A stretch of 64,000 bases of DNA from an uncultured Actinomycetes bacterium. GTDB taxonomy: Bacteria; Actinomycetota; Thermoleophilia; Gaiellales; Gaiellaceae. Within the stretch, counting starts at the first letter, position 1, and the number at the start of each line of letters is the position of its first letter. The translations under genes were made by a program, and so were the position numbers. The notes beneath the pieces are model-generated. The model was not told the origin of the DNA. It searched no databases and saw only the letters and a program-made list of their open reading frames with translations. The DNA lies in assembly GCA_963720065.1 (NCBI GenBank), contig CAVREH010000018.1, forward strand, positions 7,083 through 71,082. Reading direction: 5' to 3'. This document shows positions 1-59,430 of the stretch, piece by piece.

Positions 1-762
1 GAGATCGCCGGCCGGAGCGACATCCCGGTGGCCGCGGGGGCGGAGGCGCCGCTACGGCGCGACCTCCGCACGGCCGCCCACGTGCACGGCGAGACCGGCC
101 TCGACGGGCCCGTCCTCCCGGAACCCTCAGCCCAGCCCGTGGACGCGCACGCCGCCGACTTTCTCGCGGAGCTGGTCCAGCCGGGCGTGGTGCTCGTCCC
201 GACCGCGCCGCTCACCAACCTCGCGCTCATGCTCGAACGGCACCCGGATGTGCCCGACCGCCTCGAGCGCCTCGTCTGGATGGGCGGCGCGATCGGGCAG
301 GGGAACATCACTCCCGCCGCCGAGTTCAACGCCTTCGTCGACCCCGAGGCCGCGGCGGCCGTGTTCGCGAGCGGGATCCCGAGCACGCTGGTCGGGCTCG
401 ACGTGACGCACAAGGCGCTGTTCACGCGGGCCCACGCCGAGCGCCTGCGGGGCGCCGGCCGCGCCGGCCGCTTCGTCGCCGAGCTGTCGGACTTCTTCCA
501 GGACTTCCACGAGCGCTCGTACGGCTTCGACGGCTCCCCGATCCACGATGCGATGGCTGTCGCGCACGTGATCGACCCGACGCTGCTGACCACCCGCCGG
601 GCGAACGTGGCGGTCGAGACGCGCTCCGAGCTGTGCGACGGCCGCACGGTCGTCGACCTGCGCGGCGTCACCGGCCGGGAGCCGAACGCGGACGTCGGCG
701 TGGACGTCGACGCCGAGCGGTTCCTCGAGCTGCTGGTCTCGCGGATAGCCTCGTTGCCATGA
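1..762 (+). CDS. nucleoside hydrolase (inosine-uridine preferring family), 5' end cut by window edge
   Basis: Frame is open from base 1 (EIAGRSDIPVAAGAEAPL...). HGETGLDG, NAFVDPEAA and DPTLL...ELCDGRTVVD segments are typical of IUNH-family hydrolases. Stop at 760-762. Confidence 0.8.
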   Translation, partial: EIAGRSDIPVAAGAEAPLRRDLRTAAHVHGETGLDGPVLPEPSAQPVDAHAADFLAELVQPGVVLVPTAPLTNLALMLERHPDVPDRLERLVWMGGAIGQGNITPAAEFNAFVDPEAAAAVFASGIPSTLVGLDVTHKALFTRAHAERLRGAGRAGRFVAELSDFFQDFHERSYGFDGSPIHDAMAVAHVIDPTLLTTRRANVAVETRSELCDGRTVVDLRGVTGREPNADVGVDVDAERFLELLVSRIASLP

Positions 763-48354: not shown

Positions 48355-48429
48355 TCGGGGCGGCGAGATTCGAACTCGCGACCTTTGGTCCCCCAGACCA
48401 ACGCGCTAACCAGGCTGCGCCACGCCCCG
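48355..48429 (-). tRNA. tRNA-Pro (anticodon GGG)
   Basis: Reverse-strand cloverleaf. Acceptor is CGGGGCG/CGCCCCG, D arm is GCGC-AGCCTGGTTA-GCGC and the anticodon arm is TTGGT-CTGGGGG-ACCAA. T arm is GCGAG-TTCGAAT-CTCGC and the discriminator is A. No CCA is encoded. Confidence 0.93.
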
Positions 48430-52568: not shown

Positions 52569-53263
52569 GTGTGCGAGAAGGTCTTCCGGCCGCTCGCGCA
52601 CCCGCTCGTCCTGGTGCTCGCGTGGCTGCGGGTGCCGCCGCCTGTCGTGGTCGCGGCCGCCGGTGCGGTGGGAGTCGCGGCCGCCGTCGAGCTCGGGCGC
52701 GGCTCGCTCCTGGTCGCCGCTCTGCTGATCCAGCTCAAGACGCTGCTCGACAACGCCGACGGCCAGCTCGCGCGCCTCACCGGCCGGATCAGCGCCTTCG
52801 GGCGGTATCTCGACTCGGAGCTCGACCTGCTCGTGAACGCGGCGCTCTTCGCCGCTCTCGCCTGGACGACCGGTCAGCCGGCGCTCGCGCTCGCCGGCTT
52901 TCTCGCGCTCACGAGCGTCCTCAGCCTCAACTTCAACGCAGAGCGGCTGTCGCGGGTGGCCGTGGCGGACTCCGAGCCGCAGGGGCGGGCGACCGCCGTG
53001 TGCGCCGGATCTACGGCCTCCTCTACGCGCCGCAGGACCGGCTCGCCGAGGCGCTCGTGGCGCGGCGCCCGGCGCTCATCGGCCCCATCGCCGTCTCGCT
53101 GCTCGCGAATCTCGGAATGTCGACGCAGCTCGCCGCGTTCGGGCTGCTGACCGCTCTTGGACACCCACTCGCCTTCGCCTGGGTCGCACTCGCGGAGGCA
53201 GCCGTAATCGCGCTCGCGCTTCTTCCGCGGCGCGCGCCCAGACGACAGGAGGAACTCGCATGA
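52569..53263 (+). pseudogene. CDP-alcohol phosphatidyltransferase family protein, one frameshift ~52990
   Basis: The motif is DNADGQLARLTGRISAFGRYLDSELDLLVN. The C-terminal TM part (IYGLLYAPQDRL...LLANLGMSTQLAAFGLL) lies in the frame of ORF 52571-53263. Confidence 0.75.
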
Positions 53264-53889
53264 GCACCAACGTCTTCGAGCTTCCCGCCCACGACGGCGA
53301 GGCGGCGCGCAAGCTCACGCCGGCGGACTGGGCGCGCCTCGAGCGCAACGCGGCCGAGATCCTCGCCGCGCTCGGTCTCGACCTCGACACCCCGGGCACG
53401 CACGACACGCCGCGCCGGTTCGTGCGGGCGCTCTATGACGCGACGGCCGGCTACGACGGCGACCCGAAGCTGCGCACCGTGTTCCCGACCGAGCGCCCCG
53501 AAGGCGTCGAGGGACGGCATGCCCAGATCGTCGAAGGCCCCGTCGGCTTCTACGCGCTGTGCGAGCACCACGCGCTGCCCTTCCACGGACGCGCCTACGT
53601 CGGTTACGTCGCCGGCGACGAGATCCTCGGCATCTCCAAGCTCACTCGCCTCGTGCGGCTCTACGCGCGCCGCTTCACGGTGCAGGAGCGGATGGCGGAG
53701 GAGATCGCGGACGGCCTGCAGGAGCTGGCGGGCGCGCGCGGCGTCGCGGTGAGGCTCGAGGCCGCGCACATGTGCACCGCGATGCGCGGCGTCGAGGAGG
53801 ACGGCTCCCTCACGGTCACGACGGTCTGGCGCGGCCTGTACGACGAGGATGCCGCCCTGCGCTCGGAGTTCCTTAGTCTGACGCGATGA
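53260..53889 (+). CDS. folE: GTP cyclohydrolase I FolE
   Basis: The ATG overlaps the upstream stop (ATGA). THDTPRRFVRAL, LCEHHALPFHGRAYVGY, GISKLTRLVRLYARRFTVQERM and AAHMCTAMRGV are present. Intact. Confidence 0.93.
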   Translation: MSTNVFELPAHDGEAARKLTPADWARLERNAAEILAALGLDLDTPGTHDTPRRFVRALYDATAGYDGDPKLRTVFPTERPEGVEGRHAQIVEGPVGFYALCEHHALPFHGRAYVGYVAGDEILGISKLTRLVRLYARRFTVQERMAEEIADGLQELAGARGVAVRLEAAHMCTAMRGVEEDGSLTVTTVWRGLYDEDAALRSEFLSLTR

Positions 53890-54049
53890 TCCACCGGGCA
53901 CTGCGGCCCCGAATCCGGGTCGCGAGCACCAAGCGATGCGAGGACGCAGGGAGGGCCGATAGCGGCGCCTATCGGCGCGACCGAGGACGCCGCAGCGCGC
54001 AGCGTGATCGCGGGCCGGAGCGAGGCATGTAGTGGCGGGTGGATCATCG
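53884..54049 (+). repeat. ~165-nt hairpin-closed intercistronic element, copy A (candidate cis-acting RNA motif)
   Basis: The 12-bp perfect closing inverted repeat is cgatgatccacc/ggtggatcatcg. The core is GGACGCAGGGAG, a hairpin (ccgatag/ctatcgg), then CGCGACCGAGGACGC. This core is shared with the reverse complement of 58036-58198. Confidence 0.75.
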
Positions 54050-54851
54050 ATCGAGCCGTTCAGGGTCCTCGCGGAGGACGAGGACCTGCCGCGGTGGGAC
54101 GTCCCCGAGCAGCTCGTGGAGCTCTACGGCGGCGCGATCGGCCTGGAGGAGCCGTGCGTCGTGGCGAACTTCGTCGAGTCGCTCGACGGCGTGGTGGCGG
54201 TGCCGCGGCTGCCGCGCTCGCACGCCGTGATCGGCGACGAGAGCGAGGCCGATCGGTTCGTCCTCGCCCTCGTGCGTGCGTGCGCCGATGCGGTCGTCGT
54301 CGGCTCCGGCACGCTGCTCGCCTCGCCGCAGGGGACGTGGCGGATCGACCGCGCGTATCCGCCGGCCGCCGAGGCGCTGGCCGAGCTGCGCGCTCGTCGC
54401 GGTCGCTCGGCGCAGCCCCTCGTCGTGGTCGTCACCACGGGCGCCTCGCTCGATCCGGCCCACGCGGTGCTCGAGTCCGGTGCGCTCGTGCTCACGACCG
54501 AGGCGGCGGCGGACGGCCTGCGGGCGTCGGTCCCGGACGCGGCGGAGGTCGTCGCCGTGAACGACGGCGAGACGGTCGACCTCGCGCGGGCCCTAAACGT
54601 GCTGCGCGACCGCGGCTGCTCCGTGATCCTGACGGAGGCAGGCCCGTCGCTGTTCGGCTCGCTCGTGGCCGCGGGGCTCGTGGACGAGCTCTTCCTCACC
54701 GTCTCCCCCGTCCTCGCCGGACGTGGCGCCACCGCGCGGCTCGGCCTGGTCGAAGGCGTCGAGCTCGTCCCGCAGACGCGAGTCGCCGGCCGGCTCCGCT
54801 CGGTGCGGACCCAGCGGCTCGCACCTCTTCCTCCGCTACGGGCTCCGCTAG
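54032..54851 (+). pseudogene. RibD C-terminal domain (dihydrofolate reductase-like) family reductase, one frameshift ~54805; start 54032 or ~54113
   Basis: CVVANFVESLDGVVA, ADAVVVGSGTL, ILTEAGPSLFGSLVAAGLVDELFLTVSPVLAG are present. The tail GSHLFLRYGLR lies in another frame and ends at TAG 54849-54851. Confidence 0.75.
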
Positions 54852-55153
54852 CCGGGCTTGTTGAGCTGCCGGTAGAGCCGGTCGATCAGCGCCGGCATCG
54901 CCTCGAGCCGGTCCGTGATCACCCGCAGGCGGTACTCCCGGAAGTGCTCGGGCTCGACCTCGAGTGCGTCCGCGAGCGTGGCCACCACGTCGTTCGACGG
55001 CACGGGGCGATTCCCGTGCACGAGGTGGTTGAGGTATCCGGCCGAGAGCCCGGTGCGCGCGGCGAGCTGCCGGTACGTGACTGCCTGCTCGTCCATCAGG
55101 CTCTGGACGGTCTCGCCGAACCCCTCCTCGCTGAACCGACGCCGCTTGGCCAC
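54848..55153 (-). CDS. XRE-family helix-turn-helix transcriptional regulator
   Basis: The HTH is LMDEQAVTYRQLAARTGLSAGYLNHLVHGNRPVPSNDVV. The GTG start lies 3 nt after the proS stop. Confidence 0.85.
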   Translation of the reverse strand: MAKRRRFSEEGFGETVQSLMDEQAVTYRQLAARTGLSAGYLNHLVHGNRPVPSNDVVATLADALEVEPEHFREYRLRVITDRLEAMPALIDRLYRQLNKPG

Positions 55154-55156
55154 GTC

Positions 55157-56815
55157 CTAGACCTCCTTGCCGAGATCGGCAACATCTAATCGGTTCTCGG
55201 CGCCGCTTGCGCGATTTCGCACGTCGACTTTGCCGTCCTCGAGGCTCTTGCGGCCCGCCGTGATGCGGATAGGGCACCCGATCAGGTCGGCGTCGGCGAA
55301 CTTCTCCCCCGCCCTCTGGTCGCGATCGTCGAGGAGGACGTCGAGACCTGCCGCCGACAGAGCCTCGGCTGCCTGCAGCGCGATCTCCTCGGCGCCCGGC
55401 AGCGCTACGACGTGCGCGTCGTACGGTGCGACCGCCTGCGGCCACACGATCCCGTTCTCGTCGTGCGACTGCTCGACGACGGCTGCCATCGTGCGCGCGA
55501 GGCCGATGCCGTAGCTGCCCATGACGAGCGGCTTCTCCCTCCCGTCCTCGTCCAGAAACGTCGCGCCGAACGGCTGCGAGTGGAACGTGCCGAGCTTGAA
55601 GATGTGGCCGACCTCGATCGCCGTCTGGATGCGGAGCGTGCCGCCGCACTCGGGGCAGGCGTCACCGTCCTTCGCCTGGCGGATGTCGGCGAAGGTCGGC
55701 TCGTAGTCACGGCCGGCCTGGACGCCGCGGAGATGCTTGCCGTCCTCGTTCGCGCCGGCGACGTACTGGCCCTCGCGGAGCGCCTCGTCGGCGATCACCT
55801 CGAGGTCGACCCCGACCGGCCCGAGCGAGCCTCCGCCCGCTCCGAAGGCGGCCCGGATCTCCTCGTCCGTCGCCGGGCGGAATGCCGCCTCGAAGAACGT
55901 CTCGAGCTTCCCTTCGCTCAGCTTGTCGTCGCCCCGCACGAGCGCGAGCACCAGCCGGTCGCCGGTCACGACCGGCAGGGCCTTCGAGGTCGCGGACGGC
56001 GCGACCGAGAGGAACGCCGCGAGCTCGTCGATCGTCCCGACGCCGGGCGTCTCGACCACCTCGGGGGCATCCAGCGGAGGAGGCAGCTCCGCCTGAGGAG
56101 GCGCGCCGCGTGCGGCCTCCGCATCGGCGAAGTAGTCGCCGTTCTCGCAGCGCATCAGCTCGTTCTCGCCCGAGCCCGTCGGTGCCAGGAAGTCCTTGGA
56201 CTCCTTGCCGCCCATAACCCCGGACTCGGCCTCCACGAGATAGGCCTCGAGGCCGCAGCGCTCGAAGATCCGCCGGTACGCCTCCTCGTGCCTCGTGAAT
56301 GCGGCCTCGAGCCCGGCCTCGTCGGCGTCGAACGTGTACGAGTCCTTCATGATGAACTCGCGCAGGCGCAGGAGGCCGCCGCGCGGGCGCGGCTCGTCGC
56401 GGTCCTTGGTCGAGAAGTGGTACCAGACCTGCGGCAGCTGCTTGTACGACTGGATCTCGCGCGCGAGGAACGTCATCGACTCCTCGTGCGTCCACGAGAG
56501 CACGAACCGCCGGCCGCCGCTGTCGTTCAGGTGGAACAGGATCGGGACGTCGATACGGCCGGTCGTCTCCCAGAGCTCGGCGGGCGTGAGCGTCGGAGCG
56601 CGCATCTCCTGGCCGCCGATCGCGTCGATCTCCTCGCGGATGATCTGCTCGATCCGCATGTGCACGCGCCAGCCGAGCGGCAGCATCGCCCAGAGCCCGG
56701 CCCCGATCTGGCGGATGAAGCCGCCGCGCACGAGCAACTGGTGCGAGGCAGCCTCCGCGTCGGCGGGCGGCTCGCGCAGGGTCGGCAGGAAGAGCTGTGA
56801 GGCTCGGGCGATCAT
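55157..56815 (-). CDS. proS: proline--tRNA ligase
   Basis: Intact 552 aa. HQLLVRGGFIRQ, LSWTHEE, FRDEPRPRGGLLRLREF-like and GSYGIG motifs are present. Confidence 0.95.
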   Translation of the reverse strand: MIARASQLFLPTLREPPADAEAASHQLLVRGGFIRQIGAGLWAMLPLGWRVHMRIEQIIREEIDAIGGQEMRAPTLTPAELWETTGRIDVPILFHLNDSGGRRFVLSWTHEESMTFLAREIQSYKQLPQVWYHFSTKDRDEPRPRGGLLRLREFIMKDSYTFDADEAGLEAAFTRHEEAYRRIFERCGLEAYLVEAESGVMGGKESKDFLAPTGSGENELMRCENGDYFADAEAARGAPPQAELPPPLDAPEVVETPGVGTIDELAAFLSVAPSATSKALPVVTGDRLVLALVRGDDKLSEGKLETFFEAAFRPATDEEIRAAFGAGGGSLGPVGVDLEVIADEALREGQYVAGANEDGKHLRGVQAGRDYEPTFADIRQAKDGDACPECGGTLRIQTAIEVGHIFKLGTFHSQPFGATFLDEDGREKPLVMGSYGIGLARTMAAVVEQSHDENGIVWPQAVAPYDAHVVALPGAEEIALQAAEALSAAGLDVLLDDRDQRAGEKFADADLIGCPIRITAGRKSLEDGKVDVRNRASGAENRLDVADLGKEV

Positions 56816-56833
56816 CGGCGTTGTCGCCCTAGG

Positions 56834-57969
56834 CTATTCGAGGGGGATCATCGACGCTTCGGCCATGGCCAGGGCGGCCGGCTTCGCCATCTTGAGGCGC
56901 TTCGGTCGGTGCATCCCGTCGGCGATCCACCTGTCGATCTCGTGGAAGAGCTCGTCGATCAGGATGTCTGAGCTGACCTTCTTAGCACGCGGCCGTGCGC
57001 GTAGATGAAGCCGACGTCGCGGCCGCCTGCGATGCCGAAGTCGGCGTCGCCCGACTCGCCCGGGCCGTTGACCGCGCAGCCGAGCACCGCGACCTCGAAG
57101 TGCCTGCGGGTAGTCCTGCAGCCGTCGCTCGACCTCCTCGGCGAGCGTGTGGACGCCGACGTTGTCGCGGCCGCAGCTCGGGCAGGCGATCATCACCGGC
57201 CCGCGCTCGCGCAGGCCGAGCGCTTTGAGGATCTCGTACGCCGTCTTCGGCTCCTCGACCGGGTCGGAGGAGAGCGAGACGCGAATCGTGTCGCCGATTC
57301 CCTCGGCGAGCAGCGTGCCGATCCCGACGGCGCTCTTGATCGAGCCGGCGAAGACGGTGCCGGCCTCGGTCACGCCGAGGTGGAGCGGGTACGTCGACCT
57401 TCTCCGAGAGCATCCGGTACGCGCGGATCATCGTCGGCACGTGGCTCGACTTGACGGAGATCTTGAAGTCGTAGAAGTCGAGGCTCTCGAGCAGGCGCAC
57501 CTCCTCGAGCGCGGCCTCGACGAGCGCCTCGGCCTGATCCTTCTGCGCGAGCTCCTCGAGGTGCTTCGGCAGCGAGCCGGAGTTCGCGCCGATCCGCATC
57601 GGGATCCCCTTCGCCTTCGCCGCGCGCGACGACCTCGGCGACCTTGTCGGGGCCGCCGATGTTGCCGGGGTTGATGCGCACCGCGGCGACGCCCTGGTCG
57701 ATCGCCTTCAGCGCCAGGCTCGCGTTGAAGTGGATGTCCGCGATGATCGGCACCGGCGAGAAGCGGACGATCTTCGAGAGCGCCTCTGCGTCCTCCGTCT
57801 TCGGCACCGCGACGCGGACGATCTCGCAGCCCGCGCTCGCGAGCGCCGCGACCTGCGCGGTGGTCGCCTCGACGTCATGCGTCTTCGTCGTCGTCATCGA
57901 CTGCACGACGACGGGCGCGCCGCCGCCGATCTTGACGCCGCCGACCGAGATCTGCCGCTTGCTGGCCAT
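56834..57969 (-). pseudogene. ispG: 4-hydroxy-3-methylbut-2-en-1-yl diphosphate synthase IspG, ~4 frameshifts
   Basis: [58 protein letters not shown] and the C-terminal tail lie in ORFs 57370-57969, 56982-57599 and 56834-57373, plus short bridging pieces. Confidence 0.88.
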
Positions 57970-58035
57970 CCGGGACTCAGTCTAGCCCCGCGGGTTCCCG
58001 CCGAACCGCGCCCTCAGAGGACGCTGAGACGGCTT

Positions 58036-58198
58036 AGAACTCGTCTCGAAATGAAGCACGGACTGCCCGGCCGCGCTGGTCGGCGCGATCCTGCGTCCTC
58101 GGTCGCGCGAATAGCGCTGCTATTCACGCTCCCTGCGTCCTTGTCTCGCACTCGACCATCGCACCCGGTCAGCGCGTGGTCATCCCGAGACGAGTTCT
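58036..58198 (-). repeat. ~165-nt hairpin-closed intercistronic element, copy B (reverse strand)
   Basis: The 13-bp perfect closing inverted repeat is agaactcgtctcg/cgagacgagttct. The reverse complement carries GGACGCAGGGAG, a hairpin (gaatag/ctattc), then CGCGACCGAGGACGC. It abuts the rseP stop codon and lies upstream of ispG. Confidence 0.75.
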
Positions 58199-59430
58199 CA
58201 GTGCGGCGCGCCGGATAGGTCGTTCGAGAACGCGATCACCATGACGAGCAGGATGAAGGCGAAGCCGACGACCGAGACGCGCTCGTAGACCTCACGGGCG
58301 AGAGCGCGCCGGCGGACCGCCTCGATGAGCGAGAAGAGGATGTGGCCGCCGTCGAGCGGCAGGAGTGGCAGTAGATTCAGCAGCGCGAGCGACATGCTCA
58401 CGAACGCGAGGATCTCGAGGTAGTGCGTCAGGCCGACCCGCAGCTGCTGCTGCGAGACCTCGACGATCCCGACCGTTCCCGAGAGCTGGCTGCGCCCCTG
58501 GCTGGAGAAGAGCCCGCGGAGCCCGGTCGCCGTTCCGGTCGACGACGCTCCAGAGGTCCGATCCCGCGGTGGTGGCTGCTCTGCCGGTCGAATACGGGAC
58601 GATCTGCGCCTCGGGCTCGAAGCCGAAGATCCAGCGGCCGCCGAGCTTGACCGTGTGGCGCGGCCCGACCTCGACCCGCTGCCCGTTGCGCAGCACCGTC
58701 AGCGTCGACCTCGCGCCCGTGGCTCGCCCTGATCCGACCCGACGCAGCGTCGAAGGTTCTCGTGCGGTCGACCGTTGACGGCGACGATCCGGTCCCCGGG
58801 CTGCAGGCCCGCCGCCGCCGCCGGAGTGCCGCTCTCGACCGCGGCCACCTGTGCGGAGGCGCGCGACGACGGGCCTCCGCTGATGGCGAAGACGAGAAAG
58901 AGGATCGCGAAGGCGACGAGGATGTTCGCCAGCGGTCCGGCGGCGATGACGGCGATGCGCTTCCACGTCGCACCGTGCCAGTAGGCCTCGGGCGAGGTGC
59001 CCTCCTTCACGTCACGGAGCACTCGCTCGGCCGAGCGTCTCGCCCGGGGCGTCAGCTCGGCGGCGCTCACCTCGCGCTCGAGCTCGAAACAGGCGTGCCG
59101 CGCAGTGTCGTAGTCCTCTGCCTCGAGAGCGCGCCGGACCGCTCCGACAGCCGGCACAAGGCTGGGCTGCTCGCGCATGGCCGGCTCCAGGAACAGGCTC
59201 AGGTCCCGCGCGGCCGGCCGGTTCATGCCGGGAAGCTGGACCATGCCGCCGAGCGGGATCATCCCGATCCCGTACTCGATGCCCTTGCGCTGGATCTTGA
59301 AGAGAGCGGGCGGGAAGCCGATGTAGAAGCTCCGCGGCCGCATCCCGACCGCGCGCGCGACCGAGAAGTGACCGAGCTCGTGCAGGAAAACGAGCAGGAC
59401 GAGGCCGGCGATGACGACGAGCCAGGTCAC
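58198..59430 (-). pseudogene. rseP: RIP metalloprotease RseP (site-2 protease, M50 with PDZ), several frameshifts
   Basis: LLVFLHELGHFSVA (HExxH), a PDZ piece (PAAAAGLQPGDRIVAVNG) and the C-terminal LALLNLLPLLPLDGGHILF lie in different frames. GTG 59430 overlaps the dxr stop (GTGA). Confidence 0.85.

Follow-up and report, generated by a model that had tools for sequence, protein, structure and literature searches.

This study revealed that two long hairpins in a 64-kb stretch of DNA from an uncultured Actinomycetes bacterium of the family Gaiellaceae (contig CAVREH010000018.1; the whole stretch is referred to as the window) are copies of a single dispersed repeat. One of them, copy A, is located between folE and the gene of a RibD_C-type reductase, and the other, copy B, between rseP and ispG. 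We consider it probable that the family to which they belong is a non-coding, non-autonomous, mobile hairpin repeat resembling miniature inverted-repeat transposable elements (MITEs) or REP sequences, with T(N)A or CTAG as its target. For the two window copies, the comparison of filled and empty sites documents insertion events, with a clear target duplication in copy B; insertion throughout the family would be an extension of these two cases. The copies form a dispersed repeat beside unrelated genes, at gene 3' ends and in both orientations. Their box strand, which reads GGACGC...GGACGC, is selected to fold, either as RNA or as single-stranded DNA.

Filled and empty insertion sites

The element was absent from the orthologous folE locus of all five relatives examined, whose FolE proteins are 87-91% identical to that of the window. 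In these relatives, the 4 nt GTGA are shared by folE and the RibD_C gene, which starts at a GTG overlapping the folE stop codon. The relatives read CTGACACGGTGATCGAGCC at this site, and the window reads CTGACGCGATGATC...161 nt net...GATCGAGCC, with GATC on both sides. With regard to copy B, none of 80 orthologous ispG loci from metagenomes (IspG up to 93% identical) was found to have an element upstream of ispG. In a search of 395 kb of these relatives' loci, a covariance model derived from 117 members of the family detected no copy. The empty sites of copy B read CACTGAG^GCGCCTCAGCG, i.e. CAC-TGA-GGCGCCTCAGCG, and the filled site in the window reads CAC-TGA-[GAACTCG...CGAGTTC]-TAA-GCCGTCTCAGCG. 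Copy B is therefore an insertion at the rseP stop codon with a duplication of 3 nt, or of 5 nt if the site is read as CTNAG, and both window copies are lineage-specific insertions missing from the orthologous sites of relatives.

Across the family, which comprises a short and a long size class, perfect flanking direct repeats of the TA, TNA, CTAG or CTNAG type were observed in 20 of the 47 long elements (CTAG in five, CTTAG in two, CTCAG, TTAG, TAA in two, TTA, TCA, and TA in seven). Flanking repeats of at least 4 nt were present in 55% of the long elements, compared with 28% when flanks from different elements were combined. The stop codon at the termini of the long class is TAG in 24 of 35 cases, against a background of 37% (p = 3e-4). 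The elements are short and non-coding, have terminal inverted repeats, and show presence/absence polymorphism and, in the long class, target duplication, as MITEs do.

We propose that the element would integrate into short T(N)A- or CTAG-type targets and duplicate them. In a genome of about 70% G+C, the tolerated sites of this type are mostly stop codons, which would explain why the copies adjoin intact stop codons. Copy B entered at the rseP stop codon. Copy A entered the 4-nt overlap of folE and the RibD_C gene, uncoupling the two genes, and now supplies the candidate GTG start of the downstream one. This GTG (54032, in the 3' arm) is the sole possible start of the RibD_C gene in the window, and its use would add six codons, VAGGSS, before the ancestral N-terminus IEPF. 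Integration would be the work of a DDE transposase of the IS5 (IS1031-like) or IS630 kind. The TA within CTAG is the typical target of IS630. The IS1031 group of the IS5 family has a preference for TNA and a 3-nt site (PMC1676026, PMC2516522).

Hairpin architecture and folding of one strand

An earlier note on this DNA, made by reading the sequence, had described conserved boxes in both intervals, a compensatory hairpin between the boxes, perfect closing repeats, and a folE stop codon and candidate GTG start situated in the 5' and 3' arms of copy A. All of these were confirmed. The window contains exactly two occurrences of the composite pattern GGACGCAGGGAG-N(10-40)-CGCGACCGAGGACGC, at 53942-53990 (+) and 58093-58140 (-); 100 dinucleotide-preserving shuffles contained none. 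The inter-box hairpins of copies A and B show compensatory differences, and the closing repeats cgatgatccacc/ggtggatcatcg and agaactcgtctcg/cgagacgagttct are perfect over 12 and 13 bp, respectively. The structure is larger than had been described: the whole of copy A (166 nt; -103.1 kcal/mol, z = -7.3) and the whole interval of copy B (163 nt; -105.8 kcal/mol, z = -10.5) each form a single near-continuous hairpin, in which a symmetric internal loop is formed by the opposing conserved boxes GGACGCAGGGAG and CGACCGAGGACGC. The interval given earlier for copy B, 58036-58198, contains one surplus base at each end relative to the element proper. When the window was searched with the family covariance model, only copies A and B were recovered (E values in Table 1), together with two marginal matches (E ~0.02-0.03) that both fall within coding sequence.

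Copies A and B have essentially only the core in common, and their closing stems had been called unrelated. This view does not hold. The outer stems belong to subfamilies that are common to several genomes (A-like in L103, L011, L010 and L055; B-like in L086, L107, L014, L015 and L110), and weak subterminal signatures, e.g. YCRG..RAAYG, run through both subfamilies. The closing stems of A and B are thus diverged terminal inverted repeats, homologous ends of one element type.

From its base to its tip, the element comprises a basal stem formed by the diverged terminal inverted repeat, a 7-bp helix (P2), a symmetric internal loop of 14x14 nt formed by the boxes AAGGACGCAGGGAG and CGACCGAGGACGCC, and an apical hairpin (P3). 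A small loop of the AA/GCC type lies outside P2, often with ACCAAGC just before it. The unit repeated across the family is AGGACGC, which occurs once per arm, in direct orientation and about 43 bp apart; the direct repeat GGACGCAGG proposed earlier is exact in copy B only. The inter-box sequences occur in 104 distinct forms, all of which fold into a hairpin of 6-14 bp, with a 3-nt loop in 60. The apical loops, which are mostly 3 nt long, show no preference for GNRA or UNCG. The inter-box spacing ranges from 20 to 32 nt or more, and its length is not a multiple of three. When the internal loop is read antiparallel, GGACG is opposite GGACG (G·G, G-C, A·A, C-G, G·G), followed by GG/CC and by tandem G·A/A·G next to the apical helix. 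As judged from the sequence, this two-fold pseudo-symmetric motif is likely a docking site for a dimeric protein.

Three other interpretations of this architecture were considered and rejected. A k-turn at the GGGAG/CGACC junction was discarded since the sequence, as read by eye, fits a bulge-free tandem G·A. A small open reading frame (ORF), suggested by an ATG-to-TGA frame in L001, is at odds with inter-box lengths that vary by 1-2 nt and with covarying stems. Insertion of the core into pre-existing terminator hairpins, which might have accounted for the variable stems, does not agree with the constant arm length, nor with the empty sites, from which the arms of copy B are missing.

The stems were found to covary extensively. 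An alignment of 44 long-class elements (MAFFT) yielded an RNAalifold structure with 50 consensus pairs, 46 of which show changes on both sides. Standard pairs occupy 91.9% of the cells, compared with 63.0% in column shuffles (none of 500 reached the observed value) and 36-41% in a partner-sliding control, and there are 626 cells with double-sided changes, compared with 189 in shuffles. The mean arm-pairing score is 14.7 for arms of the same element and 1.2 for arms taken from different elements. In P2, the pair at columns 28-96 is GC in 39, CG in 31, AU in 28 and UA in 4 of the 117 members.

This folding is specific for one strand. In the variable stems of the long elements, symmetric scoring of transition mismatches gave 209 G·T against 30 A·C; G·T exceeded A·C in 41 elements and A·C exceeded G·T in none (p = 9e-13). 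The short elements show the same trend (35 G·T against 14 A·C). The wobble positions are scattered along nearly the whole stem, and the bias is equally strong in sense, antisense and convergent contexts. If the palindrome were kept up at the level of duplex DNA, or if mutation were symmetric, G·T and A·C should be equally frequent; one defined strand has therefore been selected to fold while single-stranded. RNA folding energies favour the box strand over its complement in all 47 long elements (-112.6 against -90.5 kcal/mol) and in 43 of the 52 short ones. The commonest natural variant of box 2, GACTGAGGACGC, changes a predicted G-C pair to G·U on the box strand.

Some copies differ from this general plan. 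Loci L020 (2317-2427, -) and L026 (5384-5494, -) are orthologous sites with both flanking genes in common. The stem of L020 is about 13 bp longer, its 5' side having an inverted copy, CCAACCTCGATGT, of the conserved 3' flank ACATCGAGGTTGG, which is unpaired in L026; stems may sometimes grow by copying the opposite flank. The apical part is enlarged in L025 (6287-6423, +) and L097 (- strand, core at rc 1397-1465), where GGGGAGCGCAC-loop-GTGCGTGACCCGA spans about 45-47 nt compared with about 22 nt; this may represent another structural variant or an insertion nested in the element. L005 (3678-3878) has termini of the TAGGAGG type and measures about 200 nt owing to extra sequence inserted in its 3' arm.

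Distribution, genomic context and the window loci

We scanned one genome per prokaryotic species with the exact-box pattern and obtained at least 120 loci. All but one of the 120 listed loci are in actinobacterial metagenome-assembled genomes (MAGs). Where the labels are informative, they are Solirubrobacterales, Gaiellales, Thermoleophilaceae, Miltoncostaeaceae and Conexibacter, all of the class Thermoleophilia; the remaining MAGs are labelled only at phylum or class level (Actinomycetota/Actinomycetes). The single archaeal match lacks a hairpin and is missed by the covariance model, and is thus a chance one. The family is confined to the class Thermoleophilia, as far as sampled. The FolE protein of the window shows about 90% identity to proteins of Gaiellaceae.

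Extending the arm pairing outwards from the core revealed two sharp length classes, one of about 100-108 nt (52 elements) and one of 159-172 nt (47 elements), to which both window copies belong. Plain minimum-free-energy folding or lenient extension over-extended in this G+C-rich DNA, and a too strict X-drop stalled at the internal loop. Additional copies are present at 7 of the first 60 listed loci (seven extra copies within 442 kb), several loci have two or three copies, the 64-kb window has two, and degenerate copies were also found. Local clusters include L031, where two short elements with similar inner stems stand in tandem about 100 nt apart, and L002, L042 and L078, with three copies each within 8 kb; neighbouring copies are usually on the same strand. 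A scan of viral contigs yielded two matches: a true copy at L121 and, within coding sequence, a chance match at L122. The former, a full long-class copy at 569-681 (-), is located on the 15.7-kb viral-classified contig IMGVR_UViG_3300026300_000009, which could be a prophage, a host fragment or a route of horizontal spread. BLAST searches of plasmids and phages gave no match.

Searches of Rfam 15, both at gathering score and with E up to 10, gave no match at copies A and B, and Rfam gave none at the elements of 18 short-class loci; the only match in the window at gathering score is a tRNA gene (48355-48429, -). In the searchable literature, queries with the box sequences, Thermoleophilia repeats and terminal sequences returned nothing relevant and no description of the family, which is apparently undescribed. 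The earlier note had named a homologue search, stem covariation and an Rfam match as checks on its motif. Homologues proved to be abundant, the stems covary, and Rfam has no match.

The genes at the loci were called with a simple G+C-frame gene caller. The 172 flanking proteins are almost all unrelated singletons without a recurrent neighbour, and folE, RibD_C, rseP or ispG is near the element at none of the 120 listed loci. Convergent (33) and tandem (46) contexts predominate over divergent ones (5; depletion p = 1e-5). Of the tandem copies, 34 have their box strand antisense to the genes and 12 have it in sense (74% antisense; p = 0.0016). At L088, which was checked by hand, the element occupies the whole gap between two genes, from the corA stop codon (CTA on the element strand) to the ATG of its neighbour, and is antisense to both. 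The distance from core to stop codon equals the arm length, so that the stop codon adjoins the hairpin base or is included in it; in the short class, stop codons are inside the inverted repeat (TGA opposite TCA). A U tract after the hairpin (at least five T in 8 nt) is present in 1 of 99 elements in the direction of the box strand and in 2 of 99 in the opposite direction. The elements thus do not combine hairpin and U tract as an intrinsic terminator does.

These data bear on the earlier proposal of a functional RNA motif. What stands is that the family is real, with unpaired boxes, covarying helices and the folding of one strand, as RNA or single-stranded DNA. A role as cis-regulator of folE and the reductase gene is not sustained, as the copies are dispersed, adjoin unrelated genes and are insertions.

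The features of the two window copies are listed in Table 1. No promoter- or terminator-like sites were detected around them (53400-58600). Just downstream of copy B, the rseP-ispG spacer contains an inverted repeat, CTCAG-CGTCCT-CTGAG, at 58008-58031 (-). This repeat is kept in the closest element-free relatives (L123, L124, L125 and L127) and may be a native terminator or leader hairpin of the rseP-ispG operon. The reading frames of several genes near the copies are disturbed in the window: ispG (56834-57969, -) is split over three frames (57969-57646, 57608-57387 and 57391-56837, relative to an intact homologue), the C-terminus of rseP (58198-58966 (-) region) forms a separate ORF of 67 aa, and the RibD_C ORF (54032-55189, +) continues for about 110 codons beyond the end seen in relatives. 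Several frameshifts fall in essential genes, which suggests that they are indel errors made in a long-read assembly and that the genes are not real pseudogenes.

Table 1. Positions of copy A, copy B and their parts in the window
Feature	Position	Strand	Basis
Copy A, whole long-class hairpin element, A-type subfamily	53884..54049	+	Fold; arm-pairing extension; covariance-model E = 9e-14; absent at 5 orthologous folE loci
folE stop codon TGA within 5' arm	53887..53889	+	ORF 53260..53889; sequence
GATC, left copy of 4-nt flanking repeat	53888..53891	+	Alignment to empty sites; junction ambiguous (microhomology)
P2 helix, 5' strand GCGATGC, pairs with 53992-53998 GCAGCGC	53933..53939	+	7-bp helix covarying over 117 members
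Conserved box 1, GGACGCAGGGAG, 5' side of internal loop	53942..53953	+	Search anchor; natural variants exist
Apical hairpin P3	53954..53975	+	Inter-box folding across family
Conserved box 2, CGCGACCGAGGACGC, 3' side of internal loop	53976..53990	+	Variant GACTGAGGACGC retains G·U with box 1
P2 helix, 3' strand GCAGCGC	53992..53998	+	Covariation
Candidate GTG start of RibD_C gene within 3' arm	54032..54034	+	ORF 54032..55189
GATC, right copy of flanking repeat	54049..54052	+	Alignment to empty sites
Copy B, element proper GAACTCG...CGAGTTC, 161 nt, B-type subfamily	58037..58197	-	Fold; covariance-model E = 1.4e-18; filled-versus-empty comparison
TGA, rseP stop codon and left target-duplication copy	58198..58200	-	Empty-site comparison
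TAA, right target-duplication copy, one mismatch to TGA	58034..58036	-	Empty-site comparison
Box 1 of copy B	58129..58140	-	Composite pattern
Apical hairpin P3 of copy B	58108..58128	-	Sequence, fold
Box 2 of copy B	58093..58107	-	Composite pattern

Weighing the explanations and comparison with known systems

Several observations weigh against a mobile repeat. The junction of copy A is blurred by the GATC microhomology and is not T(N)A, the statistical support for target duplications is moderate, and the short-class elements are without direct-repeat flanks and have their stop codons within the inverted repeat, so that the mobility of this class is putative. The loci were ascertained with exact boxes, so that the invariance of the boxes among the matches arises partly by construction, and related MAGs are non-independent samples. 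Within about 1.3 Mb, neither an autonomous element nor a transposase with matching ends was detected; solo termini and repeat-bounded segments of 0.6-2.6 kb were also looked for, which yielded only noise or further copies of the element. The termini are hypervariable and the centre is near-invariant, which is the reverse of ordinary MITEs. Copies within a genome have diverged strongly, which speaks for long residence under structural selection rather than for recent bursts. Finally, double-strand cut-and-paste alone leaves the wobble asymmetry unexplained.

If the element is a mobile repeat, its GGACGC...GGACGC strand would have to fold while single-stranded, and a dimeric protein would read the conserved loop, leaving the sequence of the stem free as long as that strand folds. 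The folded species could be RNA (a read-through transcript, a substrate of the RNase III type or a protection of mRNA ends) or single-stranded DNA. A more specific version, which we hold to be unlikely, is that of a mobile module acting through one folded strand: a dimeric protein would read the invariant GGACG/GGACG-tandem-GA loop and act at a fixed distance along the stem. This would amount either to a new, structure-measured transposition, with cut sites set by a ruler starting from the apical loop and not by the terminal sequence, or to an RNA signal that transposition has brought to gene ends and that has become domesticated throughout the class.

The main alternative overlaps with a mobile repeat and differs in that RNA function, not selfish spread, would keep the copies intact: a host-serving RNA element spread through the genome, such as a 3'-end stabiliser, an RNase III site, an insulator or terminator, or the site of an RNA-binding protein. 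This is possible, if doubtful. It would account for stems that all stay paired despite saturating sequence divergence, for the strand-specific wobble bias and the more stable folding of the box strand, for copies exactly at gene ends and within operons, and for sites that are conserved between species with compensatory stem changes (L027/L039/L050; L020/L026). Both window copies, moreover, are sense-oriented. However, most tandem copies, including the hand-checked L088, have an antisense box strand, so that the favoured strand is not in the mRNA, and the wobble bias is just as strong in them. The near absence of U tracts, the lack of a promoter-like signal and the short apical loops without GNRA or UNCG preference do not favour it either.

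That one strand is selected to fold irrespective of the direction of transcription speaks for a relic of a single-stranded-DNA transposon of the IS200/IS605 or REP-RAYT kind, whose HUH (Y1) transposase would recognise a hairpin on one strand and cut at a measured distance from the loop. Such recognition of structure would also explain the variable termini, the conserved core and the fixed arm length, while 3-nt apical loops suit DNA hairpins and neighbouring copies mostly have the same orientation. Nevertheless, we judge this origin unlikely. Families of this kind make no target duplication and have a fixed 4-5-nt target on one side only, whereas the repeats here are on both sides and vary between copies (TTA, TCA, TAA, CTAG). 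No Y1 transposase gene was seen beside any copy, the flanking proteins being unrelated, and the GC and GC3 skews of the loci, which are confounded by gene orientation and about zero overall, gave no link between element orientation and replication direction.

Recognition in duplex DNA, which the earlier note had offered as its alternative, would make the palindrome incidental to a double-stranded binding site on two AGGACGC repeats for a nucleoid or regulatory protein of the host. The presence of AGGACGC in both boxes, in direct orientation and about four helical turns apart, and the extreme conservation of the boxes are in line with this. We consider it very unlikely, because it explains neither the compensatory upkeep of a flanking stem of about 45 bp and of the apical hairpin nor the excess of G·T over A·C mismatches on one strand, and because the box spacing is variable. 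As for a riboswitch or metabolite-sensing leader of the folate- or riboflavin-related genes beside copy A, its sole support is the position between folE and the RibD_C-type gene and the conserved loop nucleotides. It is effectively refuted by the empty result from Rfam, by the lack of these genes at the other listed loci, by close relatives that have the same overlapping gene pair free of the element, and by elements in both orientations at 3' ends.

The family is of interest beyond the window. Thermoleophilia are abundant and poorly studied soil bacteria, in which it marks many gene ends and inserts inside operons. It affects gene calling, as the element supplies stop codons and, in copy A, a new candidate start codon. 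It probably also affects operon expression, copy A having split a translationally coupled gene pair. A near-invariant loop combined with covarying stems of fixed length and a wobble bias on one strand is unusual for a bacterial repeat. The family is thus a test case in which the effects of selection on a folded RNA and on a folded single strand of DNA could be told apart in a mobile element, and the element itself could be used as a bait to identify the loop-reading protein. It also illustrates that conserved boxes with covarying helices can mean a mobile repeat and not a regulator.

The family does not fit any known system completely; the closest are MITEs of the IS5/IS630 type, Correia elements, REP/REPIN sequences and structure-specific single-strand recombination sites. 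In attC sites and the ends of IS200/IS605 elements, one strand folds, as here, and recognition relies on hairpin geometry and unpaired bases, with stems that covary freely. The conserved boxes of attC are at the hairpin base, whereas here the base is variable, the boxes are apical and the copies are dispersed singly. Neither attC nor IS200/IS605 duplicates a variable target, and no integrase or TnpA is adjacent to the copies described here. The family thus folds on one strand as expected of an IS200/IS605 derivative or a PATE, but it does not have their one-sided fixed target free of duplication.

REP, BIME and REPIN sequences (RAYT) are extragenic palindromes near stop codons, occur in both orientations, are recognised as single-strand hairpins and can stabilise the upstream mRNA; REP units measure 20-40 nt and have a conserved stem and a GTAG-type head. 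The palindromic nature, the location near stop codons and the occurrence in both orientations are common to the present family, which differs in having no GTAG-type head, hypervariable stems, an internal loop as its conserved part and flanking direct repeats. Correia elements (CREE) of Neisseria are about 100-155 bp long, comprise two size classes, duplicate a TA target and are found at gene ends and in operons; their transcripts are long hairpins cleaved by RNase III. Correia copies are alike over their whole length, including the 26-bp terminal repeats, and carry an IHF site. The two size classes, the location at gene ends and in operons and the long hairpins are shared with the present family, whereas its stems are hypervariable, its taxon is another one and there is no sequence similarity. 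MITEs of the IS5 (IS1031) and IS630-Tc1 groups differ from it in that here conservation is lowest at the termini and highest in the centre, the whole hairpin evolves by compensatory change, and wobble pairs are biased to one strand. These MITEs, too, are small, non-coding and dispersed, have terminal inverted repeats, duplicate T(N)A or CTAG and show insertion polymorphism.

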